DNA of 64,000 nt. Origin: a virus. The position numbers and the translations under genes are program-made. A model generated the notes under the pieces. It did not search any database and was not told the origin of the DNA. It worked only from the letters and a program-made list of their open reading frames with translations. The stretch covers positions 1 to 64,000 of the IMG/VR virus record IMGVR_UViG_3300042514_001858, one strand, 5' to 3'. Shown here in pieces: positions 121-17,911 of the stretch. Numbering within the stretch: the first letter of the stretch is position 1; each line of letters starts with the position of its first letter.

Positions 121-134
121 GGTTCATGTGTGTT

Positions 135-341
135 CTAGTTTTTAATAATATCAATTTCTTCGGAACGTAGGGACTCACCGATGGACAGTTGATGACCTTC
201 GAAGATGTAGCGAGCGTATTCGCCATACTTTTCCATTACGTCTTCAATACTATTAGCTTCCACCCATGTTCTCTTAGTAAGACAATGATGATGCGAGCCT
301 GATTGCCAACGATCCTCCCAAATGACTGTGTATTTTTGCAT
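135..341 (-). CDS. hypothetical phage protein
   Basis: 68-aa ORF; motif promoter upstream; its TAG stop is part of the next motif copy. Confidence 0.7.
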   Translation of the reverse strand: MQKYTVIWEDRWQSGSHHHCLTKRTWVEANSIEDVMEKYGEYARYIFEGHQLSIGESLRSEEIDIIKN

Positions 342-347
342 GAAATA

Positions 348-364
348 ATTGTATTCTAGTTTTT
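348..364 (-). promoter_or_regulatory. AAAAACTAG-NN-TACAAT promoter motif
   Basis: AAAAACTAG AA TACAAT, 6 nt, ATG(341). Confidence 0.75.
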
Positions 365-638
365 AATTGCGTTCTTCTCTAAGTTCGTAGCGCAAATCTT
401 GTAATTTATCTTCAAGTTCAAAGACTTGTTGAGCAAGTGCGGTATTAGCATAACGAAGAACTTCAATGTCTTTTGGCAAGCATGGCAACCCTTCTGCGAG
501 CTTGTCTGCATATGCTGAGAGTTCATTGTAGTCTTCATAGCTTACCCATTCACCAGAGCTATCTGCCTCCATTTCGGCGGAGAAGCAATCAAATTTGCAT
601 TCGCGTAGAATTGGGGTGTATGTTTGGATTTTTTCCAT
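363..638 (-). CDS. hypothetical phage protein (C-terminal coiled coil)
   Basis: 91-aa ORF in co-oriented array. Confidence 0.65.
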   Translation of the reverse strand: MEKIQTYTPILRECKFDCFSAEMEADSSGEWVSYEDYNELSAYADKLAEGLPCLPKDIEVLRYANTALAQQVFELEDKLQDLRYELREERN

Positions 639-668
639 ATTTTATTTTTTAAAATCGATTAAAATTAA

Positions 669-851
669 TTCGCTTCGGAACGGTCTGCGCCAACCTTTTC
701 AGTATCCGAGTTTGAGGAGGATGGAATTTATGCCTGTCATTACTGACTTTTTCCGCGCACCCGAAGGCTCCATTTCTCGATCCCACCAGTCTCCGTGCTA
801 AGTTAATAGTAGAGGGAGGTTCTGGTCATGTATTGATACTGCCGAAGCGAA
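669..851 (-). ncRNA. candidate structured non-coding RNA (~183 nt, unknown family)
   Basis: Perfect 10-bp terminal helix (669-678/842-851), 7-bp helix (700-706/835-841), further short helices, C(UUCG)G and GUAA (GNRA) tetraloops on the minus strand; visibly GC-richer than flanks; no minus-strand ORF. Confidence 0.6.
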
Positions 852-857
852 AAATCG

Positions 858-1025
858 TTATTTGGAATGGTTACGTTGATTACCTTTGCGGCTTCTGTGT
901 TTGCTCTCAGGGGCATCCCATCGAGTGTCACAAGCTTTGCCCTCAAAAATACGAGTGCCATTGTTGTTTTGATCTTTCTTGCTTGCGAATCCCGCAGCTT
1001 TAGCTTGTCGTGTGTTTTTGTTCAT
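858..1025 (-). CDS. small basic protein (55 aa)
   Basis: Own translation MNKNTRQAKAAGFASKKDQNNNGTRIFEGKACDTRWDAPESKHRSRKGNQRNHSK; below the ORF-track cutoff; co-oriented with neighbours. Confidence 0.6.
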   Translation of the reverse strand: MNKNTRQAKAAGFASKKDQNNNGTRIFEGKACDTRWDAPESKHRSRKGNQRNHSK

Positions 1026-1075
1026 TTTGTTTTGTATTTTTATTTGTTTTGTGTTTTTATTTGCTAAATATTATT

Positions 1076-1822
1076 ATGATTAAAGTATATGATACGTTTG
1101 AGAAAAAATCAATAGTCATGAATGATCCTTATGAATTTTTGAAAGAATATGGTTATTATAATTATAAAAATAGAAAAACTATATTTTTCTTCGCCACTAG
1201 AACCAAATATTGTTTGCATAGATTTATCAAAGAAGATTTTATTCATAAAATGTTTATCATGTATTGTATTGATGATGGTAGAGAGTATCACGGTGTTTCG
1301 TCTAATGGTTTTTTAATCCAAATTGGTGAGGAATGTTCGAGGTCTAATATTCATGAAATTAATAGAATTAGGTGTGGTGTTAGAACTACAATATCATTTT
1401 CGCAAAAAACATATTGTCTCAAAAAGAATAAAGATTCGATAAACAATCTCATGATAAGTAAGTATAAAGATTCTCATTTATATAGAACAAAATCAAAAGA
1501 TGTAAAAATACAAAGAAAAATTTCAAACTTACTTCGAGATAGAATAAGGTGTGCAATGAAGAGGAGTATCGCCAAGAAATCGGAGAAAACAATGGATTTG
1601 ATCGGTTGTTCGATTTCATTTTTAATGAATTATCTGGAAGAAAAGTTTCAAGAAGGTATGACTTGGGATAATCAGGGTAAATGGCATATTGATCATATTG
1701 TTCCATGTGCCTCTTTTAATTTATCAAATCCAGAAGAACAGAAAGTATGTTTCCACTACACCAACTTACAGCCTTTATGGGCGTTGGATAATATGCGAAA
1801 GGGTTCTAAAATTTTGAAATGA
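1076..1822 (+). CDS. HNH homing endonuclease
   Basis: WHIDHIVP...HYTNLQPLWALDNMRKG HNH motif; antisense to neighbours; start moved to ATG 1076, 5 nt after TAAATA. Confidence 0.8.
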   Translation: MIKVYDTFEKKSIVMNDPYEFLKEYGYYNYKNRKTIFFFATRTKYCLHRFIKEDFIHKMFIMYCIDDGREYHGVSSNGFLIQIGEECSRSNIHEINRIRCGVRTTISFSQKTYCLKKNKDSINNLMISKYKDSHLYRTKSKDVKIQRKISNLLRDRIRCAMKRSIAKKSEKTMDLIGCSISFLMNYLEEKFQEGMTWDNQGKWHIDHIVPCASFNLSNPEEQKVCFHYTNLQPLWALDNMRKGSKILK

Positions 1823-1871
1823 TTTAGTATTGCGATTTGCCATATATATTATTTTGTTGTGTTGTTATTGT

Positions 1872-2069
1872 TCAAGCCATGTTATCACGAATTCTCATAA
1901 GTGTCAAGCGTTGATCGAGTTGTTCGTCAATCATTTTCATCCATTTATTTTTTTTATCCTCACTAGCATCTTGCCAAGATTCACGAAGAATAGAAAGCTT
2001 TTCATCAATTTTTCGAATGGAAGATTGATTTTCGTCTGCATCGTATTGTTCTTTTAATTTTGTTACCAT
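1872..2069 (-). CDS. hypothetical protein
   Basis: 65-aa helical ORF downstream of motif copy at 2100. Confidence 0.6.
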   Translation of the reverse strand: MVTKLKEQYDADENQSSIRKIDEKLSILRESWQDASEDKKNKWMKMIDEQLDQRLTLMRIRDNMA

Positions 2070-2099
2070 TTTAATTCGTTGTCAGGTGTTTAGTATGTT

Positions 2100-2684
2100 C
2101 TAGTTTTTAATATCTCGGATGATAAGTTCACAATTTTTAACGTTGGGAATTGTATCGAAGTCTTCCACACTCACGTTGTCAATGATCATCAGCATTGTCT
2201 TGATAAATTCACCATGAGACACGATAACAGCAGTGTCAGCAGTGTCAGCCGCTTGAGTCTTCAACCAATTCAGAAAGATGAATGCTCTCTGATGGCAATC
2301 AGCGAATGATTCCCCACCATCAGGACGACGATAGAAGTCAAACAGGTGTTTGCGTTCTTCTCTATTTTTACAGGCTTCATATTCATTTCGAAGATTACCC
2401 CACTCACGTTCGCGAATCAAGACATGCTCTTCTTTATAAAATGGAATATAGAGAGGAAAGTGTGTATTGATAATTTTCATTGTCTCTTTTGCTCGCACAT
2501 AAGGACTATGAATCAATAAAAATTCACTTGATGAGAGAAGCTCTGCACGAATCTCTTGCCCAACTTTATTTGCTTGCTCTTTACCCTTTTCTGTTAGAGG
2601 AACAGACCAATCAGGCATTTTGAAATACACTGACTTGTTGATATTACCCTCTGACTGACCATGGCGTGTGATTAATAATTTCAT
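2100..2684 (-). CDS. histidine phosphatase (phosphoglycerate mutase-like) family protein
   Basis: RHGQSEGN, SPYVRAKET, GES and VSHG motifs. Confidence 0.9.
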   Translation of the reverse strand: MKLLITRHGQSEGNINKSVYFKMPDWSVPLTEKGKEQANKVGQEIRAELLSSSEFLLIHSPYVRAKETMKIINTHFPLYIPFYKEEHVLIREREWGNLRNEYEACKNREERKHLFDFYRRPDGGESFADCHQRAFIFLNWLKTQAADTADTAVIVSHGEFIKTMLMIIDNVSVEDFDTIPNVKNCELIIRDIKN

Positions 2685-3691
2685 AATTGTGAGATTTTAT
2701 TTTGAAACCATCTGGCTATTTTTTTAGAACAAGCAGCACCAAATTCTTTTCGGGAAATATCCGAAGCTCTAATAGAATCGCCTTCCTCTTCCCAACAATC
2801 TTCAATTACCAAACGCACAAAATCTCCGATCTTTTGAGGAACTTTATCGGCTTCTGCCAGAACGATTTTATCGTAAATTTGTTGTAATCTATCTTCATGA
2901 CAATGAGTATCGACAGCTTCTTGGATAGAGTCTAATTTTTGAACGTCAACCGTAGGGAGCTTTTTAATTTTGGAAATGGTGTGTTTCTCATCTTTTGTTT
3001 TAAATGCTGACGAATACCCGAAAGTGTTTGAAATGCGCCACACCAATCCTTCTCCTACTCCAGATACCCCAAATTCTTTTGCAAATGGACACTCATTTCC
3101 AATTTCCGTTGTCCATTGCGTCATTTGTTCAATAGCCTTATCAGGACGATTCAAATCAATATCAATTTCATATTTATGATAATCATCGATATTATACACA
3201 TGGATAGAATGATCTCGAATACCAGAAGAATCTAGCCATTGTGTGGTGTCATCTTCGAGAACTACTTTAAGACCGAAAATAACAAATCTTTTGGTCAATT
3301 GATTCAGAGCAACCCCTTTTTGGATAGAACCGCCACACCATTCACCGAACAAAATCACATATTTCACATTGTCTTGGAAATATGTTTTGATTCGATCCCA
3401 AATACCTTTTCCATCTTTGTTCACCCAATGAGCGAATCCAGCATTATCTTGAATCTCGCTAATAATATTTTCTCTTGATTGACAATAGAAAGAACCTTCT
3501 CGACTAAAAACAATGGCAGCATTAGTACCATGTAGCTTAACTCGTCCTTCAAATTTAATAATATGCCAAGTATCAGGCTCTTTATAGATTGGTTCGTCGT
3601 TCTCGTCTTGCCCAACATAGGAAATTTGTAATTTAATATCACGGAGAACTTGATGATATTGTTTAATTTTTGGGAATGTATAGTGTTTCAT
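2681..3691 (-). CDS. RNA ligase, Rnl2-like family
   Basis: Motif I KLHGTNA, FGEWCG, GEGLVW, FKTK nucleotidyltransferase motifs. Confidence 0.8.
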   Translation of the reverse strand: MKHYTFPKIKQYHQVLRDIKLQISYVGQDENDEPIYKEPDTWHIIKFEGRVKLHGTNAAIVFSREGSFYCQSRENIISEIQDNAGFAHWVNKDGKGIWDRIKTYFQDNVKYVILFGEWCGGSIQKGVALNQLTKRFVIFGLKVVLEDDTTQWLDSSGIRDHSIHVYNIDDYHKYEIDIDLNRPDKAIEQMTQWTTEIGNECPFAKEFGVSGVGEGLVWRISNTFGYSSAFKTKDEKHTISKIKKLPTVDVQKLDSIQEAVDTHCHEDRLQQIYDKIVLAEADKVPQKIGDFVRLVIEDCWEEEGDSIRASDISRKEFGAACSKKIARWFQNKISQL

Positions 3692-3774
3692 TATTTATTT
3701 TTTAAGTAGTTTATAAAGGATATAAATTCCTGTTGCGTATAGTAACACAAGAGTAATGGTTGTCAATATTTTTT

Positions 3775-4731
3775 TCATTTCGTCAATTCTTTATGCAATT
3801 TCTGACACTCTTGAGCGATCTTCCACACAGCATTCACACCACGACCGAACTTCTGAAGCTTACCCTCTCCAACCATCTCACGCACGATGTTGCCAGCAGT
3901 TTGACCTGACACGTTCAGCTTATCACAGATACGATCTAATGTCAAGTGAGGGGGTTCATCCATAGCAAGAATTTCTTCTTTACGCTTGTCGTTAGCAGGT
4001 TCTTTAGATTTCTTTTCTTTGACTTCCTCAGTAGGAGCATTGTAAAGACCTTTGAAATCAAAACCATTGGCATTCATCATAGCCATGTGAGTCTTAGTCT
4101 CACCGAAGCGATTCTTGTATACATTGAAAATACGTAGGGCATTGTCTTCAGGATCAACAGTGATTTTCAGATTCACATCGACGGCATGAATAATATCAGT
4201 ACCACCTTTTGGAAGACCTTGAGTTGTAACATGGAGAACGAATACCAATACACAACCAGTTTCTTTAGCAGTGGAGAGAAGCAAGTCTTGAGCATATTGA
4301 TAGAACTCTCGCTTCTTCATGTTCTTGTTAGAGCGAAGAGCTTGAAAGCTATCAACGACCATCATGTCATAGGAATCCATGGCAGCAGCGATTTCTTCCA
4401 CATCCTTGATGTGAGCTACATCCACATCAGTAACACCTAAACGCTTACAAGCATATGCGATTTGAATGTGAGACTCTTCGCCAGATGCTACTGCCACACG
4501 CTTACCTTGATTTGTAAGCAATTGGGCAATCTGTAAAAGTGCGGTAGATTTCCCCGTACCTCCTGGAGCGCAGATGGTGATGGCACTACCTGCCATGAAT
4601 CCTTTGAATTGTTCAGTGCCAAACATAGTGTCGATCTCATCGTTACCAGTTGACATGCGATTGTAGAACGCATCTGGAATTTCAATGGATGAGCATTTGG
4701 CGAATTTTGTTTCTAAAGTGTTAAGTTGCAT
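3775..4731 (-). CDS. RadA/Sms-like RecA-fold ATPase with putative C-terminal winged-helix
   Basis: Walker A GGTGKST, SGEES, VVDSFQ Walker B, KNRFG RadA signature; lacks N-terminal Zn finger and Lon domain. Confidence 0.8.
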   Translation of the reverse strand: MQLNTLETKFAKCSSIEIPDAFYNRMSTGNDEIDTMFGTEQFKGFMAGSAITICAPGGTGKSTALLQIAQLLTNQGKRVAVASGEESHIQIAYACKRLGVTDVDVAHIKDVEEIAAAMDSYDMMVVDSFQALRSNKNMKKREFYQYAQDLLLSTAKETGCVLVFVLHVTTQGLPKGGTDIIHAVDVNLKITVDPEDNALRIFNVYKNRFGETKTHMAMMNANGFDFKGLYNAPTEEVKEKKSKEPANDKRKEEILAMDEPPHLTLDRICDKLNVSGQTAGNIVREMVGEGKLQKFGRGVNAVWKIAQECQKLHKELTK

Positions 4732-4737
4732 GTCGTG

Positions 4738-4754
4738 AGTGTATTCTAGTTTTT
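4738..4754 (-). promoter_or_regulatory. AAAAACTAG-NN-TACACT promoter motif
   Basis: 6 nt to ATG(4731). Confidence 0.75.
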
Positions 4755-5120
4755 AATAAGTTCGGAGTTTTCGTTAATATTGCCAATAATTTCAATGTTT
4801 TCGCCGCTCCACAACCCTCTGATATCGCAAGAATTGATATAAGTTAGATAATTACCATCATCGAAAATCACATGCGCTATGAAATTTTCATTCGAATATT
4901 CATCAGATGTAGCTTTTACAATATCTCCACAATAAATTTCTTCATTATTTTTGTCTTTCGTACCAGTCCATTGTTCGATTTTTTGATTTGGAATATCTCC
5001 CAACACTCCATAAGACTCCAAAGACCTCGCTTCAAAATCACCGTCATCAGTTGGAAATAGACAGAATGAATCTTGTGGTAGATATTTTTTACCGTTCCAA
5101 ACTCTAAATTTTAATTGCAT
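4746..5120 (-). CDS. YopX family protein
   Basis: LKFRVW...QWTGTKDKNNEEIYCGDIV...IIGNINENSEL; start trimmed to MQLKFRVW. Confidence 0.85.
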   Translation of the reverse strand: MQLKFRVWNGKKYLPQDSFCLFPTDDGDFEARSLESYGVLGDIPNQKIEQWTGTKDKNNEEIYCGDIVKATSDEYSNENFIAHVIFDDGNYLTYINSCDIRGLWSGENIEIIGNINENSELIKN

Positions 5121-5125
5121 AATAT

Positions 5126-5392
5126 TTAATATAAATTTTCTGAAAAAAGTGTTCCATCCACAGAGCATTTTCTTCTAATCTGTCCTGCAAGTTGTGCTAT
5201 AATCCAAGCATCTTGTCGATTAATGAATAAACCCGTTTGATCAACGAATCCTTGTTCTTTGACTCGCGTGTGGTATTTCTCACCATAAGCTTTTTCCAGC
5301 GTTTTTCGCATCTCAGGAGAATAATGACGAACACCGACGATGACATCCCCGTCATCCATGAGCATTGCAGCGGCAACAATAAGTCTTTCCAT
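5126..5392 (-). CDS. conserved hypothetical phage protein
   Basis: GVRH...QGFVDQTGLFINRQDAW...LFSENLY pattern typical of phage proteins; motif promoter upstream. Confidence 0.7.
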   Translation of the reverse strand: MERLIVAAAMLMDDGDVIVGVRHYSPEMRKTLEKAYGEKYHTRVKEQGFVDQTGLFINRQDAWIIAQLAGQIRRKCSVDGTLFSENLY

Positions 5393-5398
5393 GGCGTA

Positions 5399-5415
5399 AG
5401 TGTATTCTAGTTTTT
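5399..5415 (-). promoter_or_regulatory. AAAAACTAG-NN-TACACT promoter motif
   Basis: 6 nt to ATG(5392). Confidence 0.75.
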
Positions 5416-5683
5416 AATCTTCTTTTTCGAAACATAATCCACCCAACCATCCTGATCCAGATAAACAATACCTATGAGGATGATAATAGAAAGATGTAAA
5501 CCAGTCCCAATCAGAACTATTTGATTCAAAATCATCCATCCACTCCATCCCCTCAATTTCTTCAATACTACTGATTAATTCATAAAGAGGAAAATGAAAA
5601 TCCTTTTCCAACCAACCCTCACCACCTGTTTCCAAGGTGTGTAAGATCTTGGGGATTACCAATTCTTTAATTTTCTGTTTCAT
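5414..5683 (-). CDS. hypothetical protein
   Basis: 89-aa acidic ORF between two motif copies. Confidence 0.65.
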   Translation of the reverse strand: MKQKIKELVIPKILHTLETGGEGWLEKDFHFPLYELISSIEEIEGMEWMDDFESNSSDWDWFTSFYYHPHRYCLSGSGWLGGLCFEKED

Positions 5684-5693
5684 AGCCTAGTTT

Positions 5694-6128
5694 TTAAACG
5701 TAGTCCTCTTCTTTACCATAGGAAGAAAACGATGGTTCATTAAAGTCAATTCTACCATCATCGTAACCTTTCTCGTAACCAGAGCCAAAGGATTCATGTC
5801 CAATGGTTTCCAGCAAGTCAGTGATGTCATTTTGGTCTTCTTGGTTGATTTGATATTTACCAAGAATGTTTTCAATTTGTTTATGGATGTTCATAGGTTC
5901 TTGTTTTCTTGTTATGTCGATTTCTATTTTATCATCATGAAATTTGATAATACCATCTTTCACTAATTTGTCAGTGATTTCACCGCACTTCGGATTATCT
6001 CCCCATTGTTCTCTAGTTTTTAAAGAGAGATTTGGGGAGGCAAAGATCATACTTATTGTGGCGATTTCTTCAAGAGAGAATCTACCATCAAAAAGTTCCA
6101 GAGGTATTGTAATATTATTATTTTGCAT
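5694..6128 (-). CDS. hypothetical protein
   Basis: 144-aa ORF; contains an internal motif copy at 6013. Confidence 0.65.
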   Translation of the reverse strand: MQNNNITIPLELFDGRFSLEEIATISMIFASPNLSLKTREQWGDNPKCGEITDKLVKDGIIKFHDDKIEIDITRKQEPMNIHKQIENILGKYQINQEDQNDITDLLETIGHESFGSGYEKGYDDGRIDFNEPSFSSYGKEEDYV

Positions 6129-6360
6129 ATTTTTCGCTGATTATCTTAGTGGCATCCCACCAATCTGTCAAGTCATTATTTTCGCTAATTAGGTGCATGG
6201 AATATTTCTCTTTATCTGTATATGATCGAGAGCATAAAATAATATCCTCTCGACCACAAAGCATCAAGGTTTCTTCCATGAGGTATTGATATTCAGGATC
6301 ATAATCAAGAACAGCAGTCCCCCCCAATTCCATTGGTAACATATTAAGCTTGTAATCCAT
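6118..6360 (-). CDS. hypothetical protein
   Basis: 80-aa ORF overlapping neighbours. Confidence 0.6.
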   Translation of the reverse strand: MDYKLNMLPMELGGTAVLDYDPEYQYLMEETLMLCGREDIILCSRSYTDKEKYSMHLISENNDLTDWWDATKIISEKYAK

Positions 6361-6864: not shown

Positions 6865-6865
6865 A

Positions 6866-7126
6866 TTATTGTTTGAAGTATTTGTTAGCGCGGGTTTTCA
6901 TATGTTCAATTGCTTCACTCACCGATTTAAGGCGATTATCAACTTTAGGCAATTGAAATTCATTTGCATTTGCTCGCGCCACAGCAATTTTGATACCAAG
7001 CTCACGATCCCATTTGTCGATAGGATTGTGGAGAGAGTATCCATAATGAATTTTTTCATCTTGTTTAAATGCCACAACGACTCCGTGTGGTTTCCGATCT
7101 GCGTTTCTGATATAATTAATTAACAT
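6866..7126 (-). CDS. hypothetical phage protein
   Basis: 86-aa ORF downstream of motif copy at 7144. Confidence 0.7.
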   Translation of the reverse strand: MLINYIRNADRKPHGVVVAFKQDEKIHYGYSLHNPIDKWDRELGIKIAVARANANEFQLPKVDNRLKSVSEAIEHMKTRANKYFKQ

Positions 7127-7135
7127 TGTCTGTAT

Positions 7136-7152
7136 AGTGTATTCTAGTTTTT
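7136..7152 (-). promoter_or_regulatory. AAAAACTAG-NN-TACACT promoter motif
   Basis: 9 nt to ATG(7126). Confidence 0.7.
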
Positions 7153-7456
7153 AAAAGTCAAGTTTCATTTGATTGAGGTCTTCAGGTTTTGGTCTTACTG
7201 GAAAGTATTCTGTCGCATCATAAACCTCGTAGAACTTAGCGGTTTCTTGTGATGTTTTCCGAATAGAATTGGTATCCAAATCATCAGCCCATCCAAAATC
7301 GTCCCAATCACTTTCTTCAAGCGTTTCTTTGGCTACTTCGGAAATCAATCTACTATCTCTCGATGTAATCTCTTCGCCTTTTGGGACTTTGATATAGACC
7401 TCGGAGTAAGATTTTTTAATCACCTCCACAATATAGTAATCATGTTCTTCTTCCAT
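7151..7456 (-). CDS. hypothetical acidic protein
   Basis: 101-aa ORF. Confidence 0.65.
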   Translation of the reverse strand: MEEEHDYYIVEVIKKSYSEVYIKVPKGEEITSRDSRLISEVAKETLEESDWDDFGWADDLDTNSIRKTSQETAKFYEVYDATEYFPVRPKPEDLNQMKLDF

Positions 7457-7624: not shown

Positions 7625-8065
7625 TTATTTGATTGTAATCATTTTCGGCCAATATAATACGTGTTTTGTTCCTGATTTACCAGACGACCCAATGGTGATA
7701 TGTAGTCCACGATAGCCATCGTTCTCCATGATATTAAGGTCTTTTTTCATATTGTCAATGGTTTCCGAATAAACTTTCAGATAAAACATAATAAATCCTT
7801 TGGTATATCCACCCCGAATCATATATGGATCATACTGAAAATCTACACGTTCTCCATCGTAATACACAGCACGTTGCCAATTGACATCTTTGTGAAATTT
7901 GGGATTGGTGATGGTGATGTGAGCATTATGTAAAGGACGTTGTAGGAGAATCCAATATTTTTTCGATAGATGCCAGTGGTAATAATCAATAATATCGGGA
8001 GAAGTCTCAACGACGATGCGTTGTTTATCTCTTTCTACTTTAATTACCCCACTGGCATTGATCAT
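7625..8065 (-). CDS. 2H phosphoesterase family protein
   Basis: Two HxT motifs (NAHITIT, GLHITIG) about 75 aa apart. Confidence 0.7.
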   Translation of the reverse strand: MINASGVIKVERDKQRIVVETSPDIIDYYHWHLSKKYWILLQRPLHNAHITITNPKFHKDVNWQRAVYYDGERVDFQYDPYMIRGGYTKGFIMFYLKVYSETIDNMKKDLNIMENDGYRGLHITIGSSGKSGTKHVLYWPKMITIK

Positions 8066-8071
8066 GCACCG

Positions 8072-8088
8072 ATTGTAATCTAGTTTTT
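8072..8088 (-). promoter_or_regulatory. AAAAACTAG-NN-TACAAT promoter motif
   Basis: 6 nt to ATG(8065). Confidence 0.75.
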
Positions 8089-8296
8089 AATTTAATTCTT
8101 CCCACCGATTTTTAGCTGCTTTCAAACACTTAATAATTCTCTTCAATGTTTCAATATCTTTAATTTCGCCATCATTCGGCAATCCAGAGATAAGCACAAA
8201 ACATTTATTTTCTTTGACAAGTGTGACCTCAAAATTGATGAGTTTATTATCGTTATATGTTTTAAATACAATTTCTTCGCTAATTTCTTCTTCCAT
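8087..8296 (-). CDS. hypothetical protein
   Basis: 69-aa ORF. Confidence 0.6.
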   Translation of the reverse strand: MEEEISEEIVFKTYNDNKLINFEVTLVKENKCFVLISGLPNDGEIKDIETLKRIIKCLKAAKNRWEELN

Positions 8297-8298
8297 AA

Positions 8299-8787
8299 TT
8301 AATTAATCCAATCGGGTTTATTACGCTTCCAAGCATGAATATGCTTCTTATCTAAAATAATATATTTTACGTATTTTTCAGTAGCTGACAGTGACTCGAA
8401 ATTTGGTATTTTCCGACACTCACAATCACCAGCAATGGCAATTGCAAAAGGTTTTAGATCGAAGTCATCAAATCCTAACAAGTGAGCATGATCTTCACAC
8501 CATTCCAATACTGCTTGAGACTTGTGAATCTTACCATAACGTGCTGTGTATTCATCGAAGATAGCATGAGCATGAGCAATCAACCATTGGAAGTTGTCCC
8601 AGCTTGCTCTTGTCCAAATAGATGAGGGATGCGAACGATGCGATGGTTTATAAGGAGCTTCGATACCTTGTTCATGATAAGCAGTACACAAAAGCTGAAC
8701 CGATTCTAAGCCTTGTTTAACACAATGTTTGTCCACTAACCATCTTGCAGATTGATCAGGGTCTAATGACGTGCTGAAGATATTCAT
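8299..8787 (-). CDS. pyrimidine-dimer DNA glycosylase (endonuclease V-like) family protein
   Basis: MNIF...DKHCVK..LESVQLLCTA...YKPSHRSHPSSIW...EYTARYGKIH pattern. Confidence 0.8.
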   Translation of the reverse strand: MNIFSTSLDPDQSARWLVDKHCVKQGLESVQLLCTAYHEQGIEAPYKPSHRSHPSSIWTRASWDNFQWLIAHAHAIFDEYTARYGKIHKSQAVLEWCEDHAHLLGFDDFDLKPFAIAIAGDCECRKIPNFESLSATEKYVKYIILDKKHIHAWKRNKPDWIN

Positions 8788-8793
8788 GGGTGA

Positions 8794-8810
8794 ATTGTAT
8801 TCTAGTTTTT
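8794..8810 (-). promoter_or_regulatory. AAAAACTAG-NN-TACAAT promoter motif
   Basis: 6 nt to ATG(8787). Confidence 0.75.
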
Positions 8811-8881
8811 AATGAGTGATACATCAGTCATAAATCGAGTTAATGTTGTATATACCACACATTATCCTTTCCATAGTGAAT

Positions 8882-10207: not shown

Positions 10208-10861
10208 TTATCTAACATGATCAGTCACATAAATCTCTTTGGTTGACATAATATCTCTAATTTCTTCAAAACTCCATATATCTTTTTTCCAATCCCAAGA
10301 GCAATCTAAATATTTTCCCATTTGGAAGTTTGGATTTCTCGTTTTATCATTATTATGGCTATGACCATGTAAATGCCACGAACCTCTGGAACATTGGTTA
10401 TGCGTTCTCAATGGGAAATGATTTAAAACAATTCTAATTTTTCCAACCTGAATTTCTTGATGGTTCCCCATAAAAGTTAAATTATTCAACCTGAGTGGAT
10501 ACACTTCAATGTCAGATTTACCATATTGATCCATTACGGCATTTTTATAGATACGATACATTTGTGATTCATGATTCCCAAAAAGAACCATAACATTCTG
10601 ACACATGATATTATTCCACCAATTTAACACTTGATTATCTGTTGCTGACAAAAAGCTATCGCCAATCACCCATAAAAAATCATCTTCTTTAACTCTCGCA
10701 TTGATTTTGCTCACCACATCATCCACAGATTCTTGAGGGGAATTATAACCTCTCATTTTCCAAATGGGAATGTCCCATTTCGGATCGTGGTAATTATGCC
10801 AATCGCTTGAAAAAAAGATTTTGTTTCTATCTTCCCATTTGTGTTTGATATTTTTATTCAC
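10208..10861 (-). CDS. calcineurin-like metallophosphoesterase
   Basis: SDWH, IGD, GNHE, NHFP, HGHSH motifs; likely GTG start at 10861. Confidence 0.85.
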   Translation of the reverse strand: MNKNIKHKWEDRNKIFFSSDWHNYHDPKWDIPIWKMRGYNSPQESVDDVVSKINARVKEDDFLWVIGDSFLSATDNQVLNWWNNIMCQNVMVLFGNHESQMYRIYKNAVMDQYGKSDIEVYPLRLNNLTFMGNHQEIQVGKIRIVLNHFPLRTHNQCSRGSWHLHGHSHNNDKTRNPNFQMGKYLDCSWDWKKDIWSFEEIRDIMSTKEIYVTDHVR

Positions 10862-11108
10862 TTTGTTTAATTTTTTCAATAATATCATCAATACCTTGAA
10901 TGATTTCAAAGGTATCACCATCTTCCACTACCAAACATGGAACATTACGAATACCATGTTTTTTGAACCATTCAATGTTTTGTGGATCATTGTAATTTTT
11001 AATTTCCACAGTTAATTCCAATTTCTCCAGTCTTGCTTTAAGCAAGTGACATGGACCGCAAGTTGCACTCGTAGCCAATATAAAATTTTTATTTATTTTT
11101 TCCAACAT
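10854..11108 (-). CDS. glutaredoxin/thioredoxin-like protein
   Basis: CGPC active site and RNVP cis-Pro motif. Confidence 0.85.
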   Translation of the reverse strand: MLEKINKNFILATSATCGPCHLLKARLEKLELTVEIKNYNDPQNIEWFKKHGIRNVPCLVVEDGDTFEIIQGIDDIIEKIKQSE

Positions 11109-11117
11109 ATTTTTTGG

Positions 11118-12212
11118 TTAATTTTTGTGTTCCAATTCTAAGATTTTCTCCATTGCTTTGCGCACGATTTTATCATCAATGTCACGCTTGTCAAGCAAAA
11201 TAAATGCAATCGGAGTCTTCCAATCGCGAAACTCTTCCTGAATCGCCATTGCTTGTTCTTTGCGAGTTTCATAATTCCGAATAAAAGGAATTCGCTCATT
11301 CATATTATCTACACACTTTACGAATTTAGTATAGGCATCGGTAATCAATTTAGCCTCGTCTTTGATTTTCTCTGCTACTTCGAAGTCGATGTGATTGACA
11401 GTATAGTTATAAAAATCTTGATAATCAATGAATCTTGGAGATTCTAAAAAGAATTCTAAAACATGAGAAGTGCTACGCAATCCAGTTGCCAATCGGTGAA
11501 CAGAACAATACCAACTGCCCTTTGCCTTGCGCATTTTTCCAGATTCAGAGTATAAAACAACACCCTCTTTACCTACCCACATTTCAACATCTTCAAGACA
11601 TTCTTGAATAGAGTCGTAGGAATATTTTGCAGGTCTGTCGATTTCAAGAGTGATAGCCAACTGATCTAAATATTCTTGTGTCGCCATCCATCCAGAATCT
11701 TTTTTAATTATTCCAATCAAAGACAATTTCGGTTCGGGAAAACCACCAATAACAATCACATTGCTATTAGTTTGCCACTCACATAAAAATGTAAATTCAG
11801 AATTACTCTCAACGTCTTTGATAAATTCAAAAAACTTTTTATATTTTTTGATTAAAAAATCAATCTCATGACCATTAGGCATTTGTCTCGCATCTGCTGT
11901 GCCTCTAGTTCTGTGCAATAGATTGCCCTTGTATTGATCACAAATAAGCAAGCTACCATCTAATTTCTCGTAAGCGACAAAAGGTTCATCCAGAGGAAAT
12001 TTATCCAAATCTGGCTGCTCCGTATAATTGAAAAACTTTGAGAACGAACGCGATACGATAAAATTATCAGAGACGCGAACGATCATCGAACGAAATTTCA
12101 TTGTATCTTCCGTCCACTTCACTCCGATTTCTTTCGGCGTAATGAGCCAACATTCGTCACCAGCGATGACGCAATCTTTGTAATTAAATTCTTCTTTGTC
12201 TGGTAGTTTCAT
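11118..12212 (-). CDS. RNA ligase, T4 Rnl1-like
   Basis: SRSFSKFFN, EKLDGSL (motif I), EGVV, KAK; start trimmed to MKLPDK. Confidence 0.85.
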   Translation of the reverse strand: MKLPDKEEFNYKDCVIAGDECWLITPKEIGVKWTEDTMKFRSMIVRVSDNFIVSRSFSKFFNYTEQPDLDKFPLDEPFVAYEKLDGSLLICDQYKGNLLHRTRGTADARQMPNGHEIDFLIKKYKKFFEFIKDVESNSEFTFLCEWQTNSNVIVIGGFPEPKLSLIGIIKKDSGWMATQEYLDQLAITLEIDRPAKYSYDSIQECLEDVEMWVGKEGVVLYSESGKMRKAKGSWYCSVHRLATGLRSTSHVLEFFLESPRFIDYQDFYNYTVNHIDFEVAEKIKDEAKLITDAYTKFVKCVDNMNERIPFIRNYETRKEQAMAIQEEFRDWKTPIAFILLDKRDIDDKIVRKAMEKILELEHKN

Positions 12213-12213
12213 A

Positions 12214-12606: not shown

Positions 12607-12609
12607 AAT

Positions 12610-12948
12610 TTAAACATAGTCTTCTACTTTGTATAAGCTATTATCAGTTGTAACGTAAGTCACGCCATTCCGCTCTTCCACATTCCGAACAATCGAGCTA
12701 TGGAAAACGCCACGCATTTCAACCAATGCTCCTGTAACGTCAGATCGGAAAAATCGATCCATGAGAATCGGAGAATCACATTTAATTTCACCGATTAATT
12801 CACCGACCATTTCATAAGAAATTGGTGGTGATTTTCCCTCGTAAATAGAGAACCAACCGTTTTCCTGATCTTTACGATATTCTTCGATTGTTTGCGCTTG
12901 AAGCACAAGACTGTCGGGATTTATGTCTATTTTCGTTAATCTTTTCAT
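12610..12948 (-). CDS. hypothetical protein
   Basis: 112-aa ORF; motif promoter upstream. Confidence 0.7.
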   Translation of the reverse strand: MKRLTKIDINPDSLVLQAQTIEEYRKDQENGWFSIYEGKSPPISYEMVGELIGEIKCDSPILMDRFFRSDVTGALVEMRGVFHSSIVRNVEERNGVTYVTTDNSLYKVEDYV

Positions 12949-12954
12949 GCTATT

Positions 12955-12971
12955 ATTGTAATCTAGTTTTT
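12955..12971 (-). promoter_or_regulatory. AAAAACTAG-NN-TACAAT promoter motif
   Basis: 6 nt to ATG(12948). Confidence 0.75.
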
Positions 12972-12986
12972 ATCTTTCTTCAATAC

Positions 12987-13454
12987 TCATACTCCACGAC
13001 TTTTCAAAATGTATTCAATTACTTTCTTTGTCTCTGCTTGAATATGTTTAACATCTTTCAAAATATTCTGTAGATGATCGGTATCGCAATTCTTTAGGAG
13101 AACGTATTTCAGAGGTGATTTACCATCTTTACCATAAGTCCCCCAAATAAAATTATCCATTTTCTCTTCGATGCTATCACAATTTGGACGTTCTTCAGGT
13201 GGTAGGATTCTACCTTGTTTCACATCCCAAACACCATTGATTTCTTTTCGATTATATTTGTTATAAATTTCTGCGAAATCAGCATTAAATTCGAACCAGA
13301 CTGTCTCACCATCAAAAGAAAAGCGATTATAACCTCCATAAAAATTCGTATGAGGTTGACCACCATCGCACATCATGTCGCCATGAGTAACGTAATGATA
13401 ATGGTGAAGCGATGCGATGAATTTCTCACCATCTGTTTTTCCTAAAAGTTTCAT
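12987..13454 (-). CDS. conserved hypothetical phage protein
   Basis: 155-aa ORF with WGTYGKDGKSPL...DTDHLQNIL pattern; motif promoter upstream. Confidence 0.7.
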   Translation of the reverse strand: MKLLGKTDGEKFIASLHHYHYVTHGDMMCDGGQPHTNFYGGYNRFSFDGETVWFEFNADFAEIYNKYNRKEINGVWDVKQGRILPPEERPNCDSIEEKMDNFIWGTYGKDGKSPLKYVLLKNCDTDHLQNILKDVKHIQAETKKVIEYILKSRGV

Positions 13455-13460
13455 GATTAT

Positions 13461-13477
13461 AGTATACCTTAGTTTTT
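13461..13477 (-). promoter_or_regulatory. AAAAACTAA-NN-TATACT promoter motif (variant)
   Basis: 6 nt to ATG(13454). Confidence 0.7.
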
Positions 13478-13696
13478 ATTTTTTCACATTAAATTTAAGT
13501 TCATTATTAGTAGCTGGTCTTGTTCTTATAATAGGTATAATTACAAAATTTGGCACTTTTTTCAAAACATCAGGCATTTCTACAATCTCCACAGGAACTT
13601 TGTCGCAGCTAGGTATCACGCCTTTAGAAGAATATTCGACTGGTTTGACAGTATCGAATTTTTCTGAGAAAATACTCCACAGTAAGATTAATAATT

Positions 13697-14179: not shown

Positions 14180-14219
14180 TTTAATATTTGTTCTTTTATT
14201 TATTTATTTGTTTCCTGCT

Positions 14220-14447
14220 TTAATAAGTTTCATTGTTTTGTTTGTTAAATTCATCTAATGCCATCCATCCTGCTTTGTTTATTTGATGTGGTAATTCATT
14301 TACCTTTTTCAAAAGCATTGTCATTGTAGTATCGTCATCATGCTCTCCTTCTGCTCTCTTGGCACACCAGTGTGACAAATTGTGCAGAGCTTCAATAAGA
14401 CGAGCGTGTCTTGCTGTGTAAAGTGTTTTGTCTTGCTCGAAGGACAT
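14220..14447 (-). CDS. hypothetical protein
   Basis: 75-aa ORF. Confidence 0.6.
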   Translation of the reverse strand: MSFEQDKTLYTARHARLIEALHNLSHWCAKRAEGEHDDDTTMTMLLKKVNELPHQINKAGWMALDEFNKQNNETY

Positions 14448-14540
14448 AATATTTAAAATTTAATTCCCGCTTCTCTCAAAGCGTAATGTATATTGTTGGT
14501 AATCAAAATGTCCTCCACTCATAATTATTTATATCGTCAG

Positions 14541-15254
14541 TTATGGCGAGTTATGGCGAGTATAACCATATTTGCACATTTGTGCTATTGAGAGAGTCCT
14601 TAACCATCCATTTTTAGAACATAAATATCCTCTCTCGCCAGTTTCTTCACAGATTTTATCTGACATCTTCTCTGCAAATGATACCATGCCTTCTATCCTT
14701 CCGTCCCCACCACTGTAGTAGAATCTGAGGGTTCCGAATTTCTCTTTGACTTGTTGGATAGTAACTGGTGGAATTGTTTTCTTTGTGAATCTTCTTGTTG
14801 GTCTTAGAAATGAATTAAGTTTCCACACACGGCGAACCAACTGTGTTAGAATTGGCGATGCCTTTCTCAATTCATCAGCTTTACTAGCTGGAAGAAATCC
14901 CGATGGAGGATATACTACGGGATCGATAGCTCTGGAGACATACGTCAGAATTTGATGGATAAACAAATACTTGTGAATCCAACTACATACTGCATGGTAT
15001 TTGACGTATTTGGGAATCCATGTTTTGTTATTCTCAACATGATGGTTAATAGATTCGCATAGAGTTTCCACCATAGGTTGCCATCCAACTGGACACCATG
15101 CTCCACAATCAGGTTGTTTTGGTTTCCCATCAGCATCCTTTGGAAAAAGTTGTGGATATGCTGCCATCAGACGTTCTGAAAACCTTTCTTGAATCATTTC
15201 TTCATTTGTAAAATAACTCATCATCTCTCCTACGCTTTTAAATGTTTCGCTCAT
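14541..15254 (-). CDS. conserved hypothetical phage protein
   Basis: GW...QVKEKFGTLRFYY...ICEETG pattern common in phages. Confidence 0.75.
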   Translation of the reverse strand: MSETFKSVGEMMSYFTNEEMIQERFSERLMAAYPQLFPKDADGKPKQPDCGAWCPVGWQPMVETLCESINHHVENNKTWIPKYVKYHAVCSWIHKYLFIHQILTYVSRAIDPVVYPPSGFLPASKADELRKASPILTQLVRRVWKLNSFLRPTRRFTKKTIPPVTIQQVKEKFGTLRFYYSGGDGRIEGMVSFAEKMSDKICEETGERGYLCSKNGWLRTLSIAQMCKYGYTRHNSP

Positions 15255-15255
15255 A

Positions 15256-15591
15256 TTATTCTTCTACTATTCCAAGTTCAATTACGCTCGCCATTGCCAA
15301 GTCGTAACACTTTGTTATTTTAGACCATTCTCCAGTTTTGTCAAGTCGAATTCGGTATTTATTATTTGTCCAAATATCTTCGGGCATTTCAATACGATCA
15401 TCATCAAAGCGGTTTTTGATTTTTCCAAGTATTTTAATGTTCATCTTATCAATACGATCCGCTCTTTCCAAAGCTTTTTGTGCCGCTCGTCTCAATTGTT
15501 CTGCTGTAGCAAACCCAGCAACCATGCCAATGTGATTTATAATAATGTCCCCCTCGTAAATGTCTTTTCCATTCTCTTGTTCTGTATTCAT
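15256..15591 (-). CDS. hypothetical, possibly chimeric protein with YopX fragment
   Basis: N-terminal ENGKDIYEGDII; 25-nt identity to YopX gene at 16810-16834. Confidence 0.55.
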   Translation of the reverse strand: MNTEQENGKDIYEGDIIINHIGMVAGFATAEQLRRAAQKALERADRIDKMNIKILGKIKNRFDDDRIEMPEDIWTNNKYRIRLDKTGEWSKITKCYDLAMASVIELGIVEE

Positions 15592-15594
15592 AGA

Positions 15595-16041
15595 TTATTT
15601 TTTTGTAATTTTTAATCCTAGCTTGGCGGCTTTTTCAGTTAATTCATCCATTTGTTTTTGAATTGTATATTTTTCGTAAGTAACTAAATCTTTTTTGTAT
15701 TGAATCATATCTGCTTCGTATTCTTTCATGTGTTGAGCATAGTCATCACGTTCAACTTTATACCAACGCAGATTGTTTTGATATTGTTTTTCATCTTGTT
15801 GGAGATTGCGTTCTGTTTTTTGAATTTTAATTCGTTTATATATACACGAATTGGCGCAGATCAATTCTTCGCCAGCGTTATCTTTTTGAATCTTTGCAAG
15901 TTTTTGAATAATATACTCAATTGGTTTGCTAGTTATTGTAGAAAACCCTATTAGAGGTATGTCTTTATAATAATAAGACTTGGGTTTATTTGGTCTGATC
16001 CAGTATTTTTCTGGTTTTATTGGTATGAAAGGATAATGCAT
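15595..16041 (-). CDS. hypothetical protein (coiled-coil C-terminus)
   Basis: 148-aa ORF. Confidence 0.65.
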   Translation of the reverse strand: MHYPFIPIKPEKYWIRPNKPKSYYYKDIPLIGFSTITSKPIEYIIQKLAKIQKDNAGEELICANSCIYKRIKIQKTERNLQQDEKQYQNNLRWYKVERDDYAQHMKEYEADMIQYKKDLVTYEKYTIQKQMDELTEKAAKLGLKITKK

Positions 16042-16063
16042 ATTAGCGTGTGTTTATATTATT

Positions 16064-16294
16064 TTAATATTTGTTCTCTTTTCCAAAAATTGTTTCCATT
16101 GTTTTCATTTGCTCTAGCGTTTCGCTAATTTCTTCTTCACTGATTTGTTCATCATCTTGATTACAAATGCGAAACCGATAGGGCAACTCCCTTACCAATT
16201 CCATGATGGGCATCAAATAGCGGCGATAGTCACCCATCGTCCAAGTTTGCCCCCCATCGTCGGAGTATTCGTAGTAATAGTATTTGTGTTTCAT
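16064..16294 (-). CDS. hypothetical protein
   Basis: 76-aa ORF, ATGA overlap. Confidence 0.6.
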   Translation of the reverse strand: MKHKYYYYEYSDDGGQTWTMGDYRRYLMPIMELVRELPYRFRICNQDDEQISEEEISETLEQMKTMETIFGKENKY

Positions 16295-16644
16295 TGTTTT
16301 AAAAGCTCAGGGTTCTCGTGAATGTTACCAATGACTTCGTAATCCTCCAAAATGTCTGGTGATAAACTGTATGCGTGGTCATAAAGTGGACCATCACCAT
16401 CTATCATGAATGAACCTGCTGCAAAAAACACATGCCCGATATTAGCCTCTCCATCACTACCATCATGTTCTTCAGCTAGAATATCACCCTCATACACCTC
16501 TTTACCAGAAGTCGTTTTCATTCCAGTGAATTGCAGAGGTATGAATTCCTTGTGACCAAATCGCATAACCATTTCCCATGAATACGCTCTATCACTCATT
16601 CTTTTAGTATCAGAGTGATACGTTTTAAATTTAATTTCTCTCAT
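16291..16644 (-). CDS. YopX family protein
   Basis: MREIKFK...QFTGMK..GKEVYEGDIL...EVIGNIHENPELL. Confidence 0.85.
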   Translation of the reverse strand: MREIKFKTYHSDTKRMSDRAYSWEMVMRFGHKEFIPLQFTGMKTTSGKEVYEGDILAEEHDGSDGEANIGHVFFAAGSFMIDGDGPLYDHAYSLSPDILEDYEVIGNIHENPELLKQ

Positions 16645-16982
16645 TTTTGTAATAGTTCTGGATTTTCGTGGATGTTACCAATGATTTCGTGTTCAATTGC
16701 CCAATCTTTTGAAGCAATATCTTCATCAATCATAAATGAACCGTCATCGAAGGATACTATACTAACACCATTACCAACTTTATGTATTCCTCCATATGAT
16801 AAGATATCTCCCTCGTAAATGTCTTTTCCATTCTTATCTTTAAGACCAATAAATTGTTGAAAATCATACTCTTCTACAGGGTTCATGTCATACATCTGCC
16901 ACTCCACGATATCAAAGTTGGCGAATGGTTTCCATTCCTTCTCAACCTTATCCCAAACTCTAAATTTTATTTCTCTTCGCAT
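16641..16982 (-). CDS. YopX family protein
   Basis: EIKFRVWD...QFIGLKDKNGKDIYEGDIL...IIGNIHENPELL. Confidence 0.9.
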   Translation of the reverse strand: MRREIKFRVWDKVEKEWKPFANFDIVEWQMYDMNPVEEYDFQQFIGLKDKNGKDIYEGDILSYGGIHKVGNGVSIVSFDDGSFMIDEDIASKDWAIEHEIIGNIHENPELLQK

Positions 16983-17152
16983 ATTGAAAATAAATCTTTA
17001 ACGGTGTCTTCGTTGAAGGTTTGATGGATTAAAATTGTTTTAAATGTTAGAATCCAATCATCGACATTTGAGTGTCGATTCATGGTGATTCGAAGCTCAT
17101 TATCAGATGATGGGTCGGAAACGGTAATTATTATTGTTTGTTGTTGATTCAT
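16967..17152 (-). CDS. hypothetical protein
   Basis: 61-aa ORF, ATGA overlap. Confidence 0.55.
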   Translation of the reverse strand: MNQQQTIIITVSDPSSDNELRITMNRHSNVDDWILTFKTILIHQTFNEDTVKDLFSICEEK

Positions 17153-17460
17153 TTTTTAATGTTTTTAGGTGCTTCTTTTATTGCTTCTTCTGGCAACGGA
17201 GGGCATTTTTGATACTGCCACCATTCACTCCCATGATATTCGCCGCGATCACTCCATGAGCCATCGTTATACCAAATTGTGCCGAAGAGTTCTTGACTCC
17301 CATAGCCGCTATTATAGTCAAAGTCGAGACGAGGAAGTACCTCTTCAAGAGTTCCCTCGATCTTTATGTTACTATCTCCCCAGTCGAGTTCGTGGTTGAT
17401 TTGAACATACTTTACTTCACGGTCTTTGATATGTTTTAATAATTCTTCTTTAGCATTCAT
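17149..17460 (-). CDS. conserved hypothetical phage protein
   Basis: YNSGYGSQELFGTIWYNDGSWSDRGEYHGSEWW pattern. Confidence 0.75.
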   Translation of the reverse strand: MNAKEELLKHIKDREVKYVQINHELDWGDSNIKIEGTLEEVLPRLDFDYNSGYGSQELFGTIWYNDGSWSDRGEYHGSEWWQYQKCPPLPEEAIKEAPKNIKK

Positions 17461-17483
17461 AGTGTTTTTATTAATTTGTTCGT

Positions 17484-17888
17484 TTATCGTAATTTCAAGC
17501 TATTTTTAATATTTTGTTCTTGATGCTCCAGAACATGTTCAGGCACATTATGAATGTTTTTACCTCCATGACGATTCTCAAGCACCAACGAGAAAACCAT
17601 AATACCACGTTTTTCTGCTTCGTCAAGATAAAATTTGTAATCGCTTTCTTTCGTGGAGGTATTTGCAACTACGATGGTATCGGTTGAAGAAGAATCGATC
17701 AATGATAGATACTTCTCTTGGCAAGCTTTATGAGCCTGTCCAAGCTTGGAAGCATCAAAATTATAATTACCCTGTCCATCTGTGAAATAATCATCAGCAC
17801 AGCAGATACAAGAATCAGGTGCAAAGGTTTTGGCAAAAGTGGATTTGCCAGCCCCACTGACTGCTCTAATTAGTATTAATTTACGCAT
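17484..17888 (-). CDS. P-loop kinase (polynucleotide-kinase/AAA_33-like)
   Basis: SGAGKST Walker A, ADDYF, ANTST, HNVP motifs. Confidence 0.8.
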   Translation of the reverse strand: MRKLILIRAVSGAGKSTFAKTFAPDSCICCADDYFTDGQGNYNFDASKLGQAHKACQEKYLSLIDSSSTDTIVVANTSTKESDYKFYLDEAEKRGIMVFSLVLENRHGGKNIHNVPEHVLEHQEQNIKNSLKLR

Positions 17889-17894
17889 AGCCCA

Positions 17895-17911
17895 ATTGTA
17901 GGCTAGTTTTT
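17895..17911 (-). promoter_or_regulatory. AAAAACTAG-NN-TACAAT promoter motif
   Basis: 6 nt to ATG(17888). Confidence 0.75.

Follow-up and report, generated by a model that had tools for sequence, protein, structure and literature searches.

A candidate clade-private promoter class with predicted leaderless mRNAs in the accessory region of T4-like phages

Among described systems, the middle promoters of bacteriophage T4 are the closest in logic to the element reported here, a 9-bp box that is followed after 2 bp by a -10-like hexamer and, mostly 6 nt further on, by an ATG. It recurs in the first 64 kb of the 154,167-bp IMG/VR virus contig IMGVR_UViG_3300042514_001858; this whole stretch of 64,000 nucleotides is called the window, the contig is called G000, and related genomes are given as G001, G002 and so on. 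T4 middle promoters carry the MotA box (a/t)(a/t)(a/t)TGCTTtA 12 +/- 1 bp ahead of the -10 element, centred at -30 (Hinton, 2010; PMC2988021). In both systems a phage-specific, asymmetric 9-bp box takes over from the -35 element and a host-type -10 is kept, both occur in dozens of copies ahead of prereplicative genes in T4-type phages, and in both some copies are compatible with an early-type -35. However, every defining feature but the -10 fails here: the box AAAAACTAG is unrelated to the MotA box and lies rigidly 2 bp from the -10 (about -23 to -15), the -10 is loose whereas it is stringent in T4, leaderless messenger RNAs (mRNAs) are predicted where T4 has leaders with a Shine-Dalgarno (SD) sequence, and profile searches found neither MotA nor AsiA. 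An earlier note on this DNA, made from the sequence alone, had likewise set the element apart from the T4 MotA box, and both sequence and spacing bear this out.

T4 late promoters consist of the core TATAAATA, which is read via gp55, gp33 and gp45. They resemble the box unit in lacking a -35, and G000 has both a gp55 orthologue and TAAATA exactly 5 nt ahead of the ATG at 41 called starts, mostly of virion genes. In contrast, the late class has TAAATA where the box class has nAnnnT plus the box, it serves virion genes rather than accessory prereplicative genes, and no TATAAATA-type core is found at -13 to -6 of the box units. Stereotyped cassettes are also known from the T4-type phages RB49 and phi1, whose PeSL cassettes combine a sigma70-consensus -35 and -10 with a G/C stem-loop terminator and an SD sequence (Arbiol et al., 2010; PMC2839356). 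The likeness lies in some 50-100 stereotyped promoter cassettes in hyperplastic regions ahead of ORFans, in an upstream stop codon within the cassette and in recombination between copies that makes indels, whereas the present units have no -35, no enrichment of stem-loops or terminators and no SD sequence, and carry a private box instead.

For a phage promoter class that does without a -35, the nearest precedents are extended -10 promoters and the gp39 switch of the Thermus phage P23-45, in which gp39 dislodges sigma region 4 before the middle and late promoters come into use (Tagami et al., 2014; PMC3950348). There too an element just upstream of the -10 compensates for the -35, and the phage redirects the host enzyme to a class of its own; unlike TGn, the present element has G at -15 and mostly A at -14, measures 9-11 bp and is clade-specific. 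A counterpart of gp39 was not identified, no search having been aimed at one. Transcripts of the Thermus phages phiYS40 and P23-45 are reportedly often leaderless. In Deinococcus-Thermus bacteria, a -10 element adjoining the open reading frame (ORF) gives leaderless mRNAs (Zhong et al., 2025; PMC12340547), with the hexamer a few bases ahead of the start codon and transcription starting at or near the AUG, as is predicted here; that arrangement is host-wide and has no upstream box, whereas here the layout recurs in three promoter classes of a phage, of which the present one has a private box in addition. Within the limited reach of the literature search, no report of the box or of a leaderless layout in the T4 family was found: the motif string matched only primers and satellites, and queries on leaderless transcripts in T4-like phages and on the transcription start sites of Syn9 returned nothing relevant. 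The reading preferred here, whose chances we regard as evenly poised, is that of a clade-private promoter class giving leaderless prereplicative mRNAs, with the box read by a phage-specified factor.

Box units in the window and in related phages

The window holds 13 matches to AAAAACTAR, all on the minus strand and each where the earlier note had placed it, while chance would give a mean of 4.1 (standard deviation 1.8) and none of 100 dinucleotide-preserving shuffles reached 13. Twelve are AAAAACTAG and one, at 13469, is AAAAACTAA. Nine copies show the full arrangement of box, 2 nt, hexamer, 6 nt and ATG that had been reported for them, with the A of the ATG at 120, 341, 4731, 5392, 8065, 8787, 12948, 13454 and 17888. 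Their hexamers are TACAAT (five), TACACT (two), TATACT and CACACA (one each), and all nine ATGs are the first start codon of a listed ORF. Three further copies have a hexamer followed by a leader of 3-16 nt (2100, 7144) or by no clear gene (6013). The copies are as follows, with protein lengths in amino acids (aa) and +1 denoting the predicted transcription start.

118..145 (-), unit 1: box 135-143, degenerate hexamer CACACA 127-132, ATG 118-120; the ORF extends past the window start.
339..366 (-), unit 2: TT plus box 356-364, TACAAT 348-353, N6, ATG 339-341; 68-aa ORF 135-341, whose orthologue in G002 retains the unit.
2067..2110 (-), unit 3: box 2100-2108, CATACT 2092-2097, predicted +1 at 2085, 16-nt leader, ATG 2067-2069; 65-aa ORF.
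4729..4756 (-), unit 4: box 4746-4754, TACACT, N6, ATG 4729-4731; 318-aa KaiC/RecA-like ATPase, with the same unit present at the orthologue (G002, 30517).
5390..5417 (-), unit 5: box 5407-5415, TACACT, N6, ATG 5390-5392; 88-aa ORF, phrog_839.
5681..5697 (-): box 5687-5695 without a -10-like hexamer, ATG 5681-5683, 3 nt past the box; the box carries the TAA stop of ORF 5694-6128, homology with G001 stops at it, and it is probably not an active promoter.
5998..6023 (-): box 6013-6021, AACAAT 6005-6010, predicted +1 at 5998, within ORF 5694-6128; the homologous stretch of G001 likewise holds an internal box copy.
7124..7154 (-), unit 8: box 7144-7152, TACACT 7136-7141, predicted +1 at A 7129, 3-nt leader ACA, ATG 7124-7126; 86-aa ORF.
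8063..8090 (-), unit 9: box 8080-8088, TACAAT, N6, ATG 8063-8065; 146-aa ORF, phrog_12204.
8785..8812 (-), unit 10: box 8802-8810, TACAAT, N6, ATG 8785-8787; 162-aa ORF, phrog_624, denV-like by a weak match to Pfam Pyr_excise.
12946..12973 (-), unit 11: box 12963-12971, TACAAT, N6, ATG 12946-12948; 112-aa ORF.
13452..13479 (-), unit 12: variant box AAAAACTAA 13469-13477, TATACT, N6, ATG 13452-13454; 155-aa ORF.
17886..17913 (-), unit 13: box 17903-17911, TACAAT, N6, ATG 17886-17888; 134-aa ATPase or polynucleotide-kinase-like ORF.

What the window shows with its 13 copies is one margin of a regulon of about 100 copies, whose scale the earlier observation had understated. G000 comes from an uncultured lake phage, a T4-like myovirus that has tail sheath, baseplate wedge, large terminase and gp32 genes as well as a gp55-type late sigma; the contig is rated 75% by CheckV and breaks inside the accessory block. 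Over the whole 154-kb contig, AAAAACTAG occurs 16 times on the minus strand and once on the plus strand, with full units beyond the window at 66892, 68140 and 77045. The closest relatives of G000 have 90-115 units each, and in G002 about 115 units are spread across a block at 7.5-74 kb, one ahead of nearly every small gene. The first base of G000 corresponds in alignment to about 29.1 kb in G001, where the block continues to about 58 kb, hence the G000 contig probably lacks about 29 kb that carry roughly 70 more units. The same strand bias is seen in the forward and reverse counts of the 9-mer in the relatives:

G001, 184 kb: 92 forward, 2 reverse.
G002, 207 kb, complete: 91 forward, 1 reverse.
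G003: 27 forward, 1 reverse.
G004: 36 forward, 2 reverse.
G005: 39 forward, 1 reverse.

Among IMG/VR contigs, more than 108 stretches contain the exact string AAAAACTAG-NN-TACAAT-N6-ATG, many of them 2-9 times. No near-identical phage record was found for 1-20 kb or 30-50 kb of the window. The best cultured relatives by terminase are only about 35% identical, so that the host cannot be inferred from culture. An inverted pair of boxes, 23 nt apart, lies beside poly-G/poly-C tracts at the end of the G000 contig (154087-154147), and such pairs also occur in G001 (58173/58196) and G003 (124582/124605). The pairs lie at the far end of the small-gene block, at which the G000 contig breaks, and their candidate roles are those of a block terminator, an origin or a bidirectional element.

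Anatomy, alleles and targets of the unit

The consensus of 465 unique sites in the relatives is TT-AAAAACTAG-A(a)-T A c a a T-N5-C-ATG, and the generalised unit is TT-AAAAACTAG-NN-nAnnnT-N5-Y-R. Only two hexamer positions, A-11 (0.98) and T-7 (0.97), are fixed, while the others vary freely (TACAAT, CATAAT, GATACT, TAAGAT). These are the two bases that are flipped out by region 2 of sigma70-family factors, and the sigma70-type, -10-like character that had been assigned to the hexamer thus holds across the sites. The -35 position carries no information in the 465-site logo, as had been suspected from the window, and TGn is absent as well, with G at -15 in 100% and A at -14 in 81% of sites. The gap between box and hexamer is 2 bp in 113 of 118 plus-strand copies of G002.

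The dinucleotide at positions 6 and 7 after the hexamer is a pyrimidine-purine step in 108 of 114 units of G002 and 92 of 97 of G001, and it is kept in units with nine nucleotides between hexamer and ATG (..C-ACC-ATG, ..T-GCC-ATG), in which it no longer adjoins the ATG. A spacing of N6 between hexamer and ATG is found in 9 of 13 window copies, 78 of 114 units of G002 and 59 of 97 of G001. As the pyrimidine-purine step is the -1/+1 signature to be expected of a start precisely 7 nt past the hexamer, most mRNAs can be read as starting at the A of the AUG; both this start site and translation without a leader are probable predictions from the promoter anatomy. The earlier suggestion of leaderless mRNAs thus fits the predicted +1, but it does not extend to every unit, as some have leaders of 3-16 nt and others precede transfer RNA (tRNA) or non-coding RNA genes. 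That the spacing leaves no room for an SD sequence agrees with the phage as a whole, in which an SD-like word stands ahead of 21 of 209 crude gene starts, compared with 44.6 +/- 5.7 at random in-gene positions.

In five relatives a tRNA gene begins 6-14 nt past the hexamer of a box unit, and in three relatives a unit precedes a conserved structured RNA of 180 nt. As neither is translated, the unit has to be a transcription signal and not a translation signal. Three tRNAs of G002 abut the hexamer (0 nt), and another relative has one at a distance of 1 nt. The three belong to a cluster of tRNA genes (Leu, Ile, Leu, Met, Arg) at 57695-59814 of G002 (locus L145), in which three genes start right after a box-hexamer unit and both tRNA-Leu genes have sigma70-type promoters with 10-nt leaders; no tRNA genes were found in the window. 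The abutting tRNAs prompted an alternative register, with TAGnnT (box positions 6-11) as the -10 and the start just after the second hexamer. This was rejected, since about 45% of G002 units have C or G at box position 11, which would have to serve as T-7, while A12 and T16 are invariant. In the window, the structured RNA candidate of about 180 nt lies at 670-850 (-), where it follows a 55-aa ORF, while in three relatives it begins 6-7 nt past a box promoter. It is 90-97% identical in many relatives compared with 66-79% for the adjoining coding DNA, RNAalifold predicts for it a consensus of 49 pairs, with compensatory changes at 15, and Rfam gave no match to it at E <= 0.1 and none over 1-20 kb of the window.

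A k-mer search anchored only on nAnnnT-N6-ATG recovered the box de novo, in a different allele in each clade:

G000 and G002: AAAAACTA, gap 3.
G007, G008 and G010 (sheath about 60% identical): AAACACTA, same geometry.
G006: AAAAACCAC/TAC, same geometry.

Thus G000-G005 and G011 carry AAAAACTAG, G007, G008 and G010 carry AAACACTAR and G006 carries AAAAACCAC/TAC, and no genome mixes alleles. At orthologous genes the unit persists although its allele has switched and the flanks have diverged: the gene family of unit 9 has a box unit in five genomes, with AAAAACTAG in G000 and G002 and AAACACTAG in G008 and G010 among four aligned orthologues, and the orthologues of unit 11 in G008 and G010 bear the AAACACTAG allele, too. 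Such switching is what one would expect from a change in specificity of a dedicated reader, but a change of host could produce it as well. The full unit is restricted to phages, in that 596 Gb of bacterial and archaeal genomes from 185,579 species yielded 20 scattered singletons, about the chance expectation, and no genome with two.

Three promoter-like classes, all abutting start codons, are found in the phage, namely the box units, TAAATA-N5-ATG (window examples are 36395-37126, 38485-39054 and 39164-41614) and a TTGACW class. The last has the form TTGACW-N16 (ending TGn)-TAnnnT-N6-ATG, is conserved in six related genomes, precedes glycosyltransferase, DNA methylase, polymerase and other genes, and has no box-like spacer. 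It serves as a proxy for the housekeeping consensus of the host. The earlier note had allowed that the motif might simply be that consensus, but the same phages carry this canonical class separately. As to the novelty claimed for the element, the box is private indeed, while AAAAACTAG turns out to be one allele of a box family common to a clade of freshwater T4-like phages. Late mRNAs look leaderless as well, and the putatively leaderless layout is not special to the box class, as the late and sigma70-type promoters share it.

The boxes also coincide with exchange junctions of gene cassettes. Between G000 and G001, 6 of 34 ends of homology blocks fall at boxes, where 0.7 would be expected; in 20,000 random placements the count always stayed below 6, and the maximum in a separate run of 5,000 placements was 7. 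At box 7144, G001 has an extra 400-bp cassette between two promoter copies, where G000 has a single copy. In 9 of 14 units the upstream gene has its stop codon at the box, either as T+AA just ahead of it or as TAG within it, and in G002 the box holds this stop in 82 of 114 units. Terminator-like sites number 14 in 19 kb compared with 8.8 +/- 3.3 in shuffles, and none is paired with a box.

How the box may be read

In the preferred reading, host RNA polymerase with its primary sigma factor would melt the -10 hexamer, of which only A-11 and T-7 are fixed, and would start 7 nt downstream, at a purine following a pyrimidine. In most units this purine would be the A of the ATG, giving a leaderless mRNA translated without an SD sequence. 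The 9-11 bp box at -25/-23 to -15 would replace the absent -35 and TGn, and its reader would be specified by the phage, as an activator or a sigma-like or sigma-remodelling protein that is either synthesised early or enters along with the injected DNA, and whose specificity changed between sister clades. The units would be a functional counterpart of the T4 middle promoters with another geometry and without MotA and AsiA, and the roughly 100 direct repeats would double as junctions for the gain and loss of accessory gene cassettes. Weak hexamers such as CATAAT, GATACT and TAAGAT without a -35 or TGn suggest that the box supplies binding energy. An activating factor is favoured by the lack of -35 and TGn here while host-type promoters keep them, by the rigid 2-bp spacing and by the discrete alleles. 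Somewhat more tentatively, as a proposal a little less probable than its opposite, this may be an undescribed form of polymerase redirection, in which a phage protein reads the box at -25 to -15, where no activator is known to act, in place of -35 and TGn recognition, and in which box and reader have co-diversified to at least three specificities (AAAAACTAG, AAACACTAR, AAAAACCAC) with about 100 leaderless cassettes per clade.

Several observations weigh against a phage-specified reader or the predicted start. Profile searches for one came back empty: MotA_activ (PF09114) and AsiA (PF09010) had no match at E <= 10 in G000 or at E <= 1 in G001, G002, G003, G008 and G010 (three of these five relatives are complete by CheckV), MotCF (PF09158) had none at E <= 1 in the same five, and Sigma70_r4 had none in all six. 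PHROGs and Pfam assigned none of 23 conserved non-late proteins to a sigma, anti-sigma or RNA-polymerase-binding family, the only sigma-like gene per genome is the gp55 orthologue (G000, 93900-94340, minus strand), and ten box-driven gene products gave no such family apart from the weak helix-turn-helix (HTH) described below. In addition, if these genes are the first that the infection requires, reliance on a newly made phage protein is awkward. The allele switch could stem from a host difference between the clades. Hybrid promoters of the form TTGACA-N5-box-NN-TAnnnT (spacer 16) exist, with TTGACA in 5 of 114 G002 units, and this coexistence of the box with a normal -35 fits a cis element read by the host enzyme. 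Finally, a start at +7 would truncate the tRNAs that lie 0-1 nt from a hexamer, so those box copies cannot be working promoters for them; transcription of these tRNAs must come from the sigma70-type promoters that are present upstream.

A weak lead to a reader is a 362-aa protein encoded at 19134-20222 (-), which joins a sub-threshold N-terminal HTH_23 (E = 4.7e-4) to a metallophosphoesterase (phrog_221). In five genomes it is conserved and its gene always heads the box-promoter block, and four of the five orthologues have a sigma70-type promoter, but its recognition helix does not follow the box allele.

The empty searches, the need for immediate-early genes to be read without new phage proteins and the hybrid promoters would suit an unmodified host holoenzyme that reads these as early promoters on its own, with the box as a cis spacer or 'extended' element (through sigma region 3, the beta-prime zipper or A-tract shape) that helps a promoter without -35 and TGn to compete, and with alleles that track hosts. 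The small accessory ORFs form one long co-oriented block as in T4 early regions, T4 early promoters likewise carry extra consensus, and the rigid 2-bp spacing recalls the reading of TGn by sigma itself. Nevertheless, this is thought rather unlikely, as the host-type promoters of the same phages have a canonical -35, TGn and -10 and no box-like spacer, the full unit is not enriched in any of the species genomes searched, and three discrete alleles exclusive within a genome look like the specificity switch of a dedicated reader. To our knowledge, it would also be without precedent for a primary sigma holoenzyme to read 9 bp base by base between -23 and -15.

If the -10 alone sufficed in the host, the box could instead be the operator of a phage repressor that silences the roughly 100 prereplicative genes at the late switch. 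The box overlaps the footprint of RNA polymerase and is a natural operator site, and asymmetric multi-copy operators are known in phages, for example that of P1 C1. All three promoter classes abut start codons, which suggests a host of this kind, and -10-only promoters abutting ORFs do work in some phyla (PMC12340547). This explanation is judged improbable, since many hexamers are poor (T-12 is often replaced, as in CATAAT, GATACT and TAAGAT) and would be weak without help, the sigma70-type class keeps -35 and TGn, so that the host enzyme evidently uses both, and an operator has no need of a rigid 2-bp spacing.

It is very improbable that a phage RNA polymerase or an undetected alternative sigma reads box and hexamer as one element of 17-19 bp, with the start perhaps right after the hexamer and 6-nt leaders. 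Box, NN and hexamer do form a rigid 17-bp unit of the size of T7-type promoters, and the three G002 tRNAs begin directly after the hexamer. However, no multisubunit, beta-like polymerase gene (PF00562) was found in six genomes, while the control was positive in 14 of 14, and only the gp55-type sigma was detected; the search for a T7-type polymerase (PF00940) gave no match, but no signal in its control either. Moreover, A-11 and T-7 as the only invariant bases are a sigma70-family signature, and the site right after the hexamer is unconserved, while the pyrimidine-purine step lies at +7 and tRNAs elsewhere begin 6-14 nt past the hexamer.

That the repeat is mainly a recombination or cassette-junction element, or an RNA-level signal such as a processing site with built-in stops, with its promoter likeness secondary, would suit the indel boundaries of close relatives at boxes and the upstream stop codons in the box but is hardly credible, as passive recombination at short repeats leaves nAnnnT, the pyrimidine-purine step and the fixed ATG distance unexplained, the G006 allele (CCAC) lost the TAG stop yet retains the geometry, and no stem-loops or terminators accompany the boxes.

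To the question of how T4-type phages without MotA and AsiA time their prereplicative genes, the clade-specific box with its roughly 100 copies beside a host -10 brings a defined DNA bait and natural allele swaps by which the reader could be found. If the predicted starts were confirmed, a large group of environmental phages would express most of its genes from leaderless mRNAs, which would constrain the identity of the host. For annotation, box, TAAATA and TTGACW units mark the true start codons of tiny ORFs, the repeats mark the exchange junctions of accessory gene cassettes, and an orthogonal pair of box and reader would be a useful part for synthetic biology.

Genes of the accessory block

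The accessory block on the minus strand of the window encodes an RNA-repair-like set together with other functions (10208-12212, 17484-17888, 8299-8787, 2100-2684). The set comprises an RNA ligase of the T4 Rnl1 type, the polynucleotide-kinase-like ATPase and a metallophosphoesterase, and the block further encodes the denV-like protein and a histidine phosphatase. YopX-domain paralogues, of which 18 members occur over six related genomes with several per phage, are found in the window at 16291-16982 and 4746-5168 (-).

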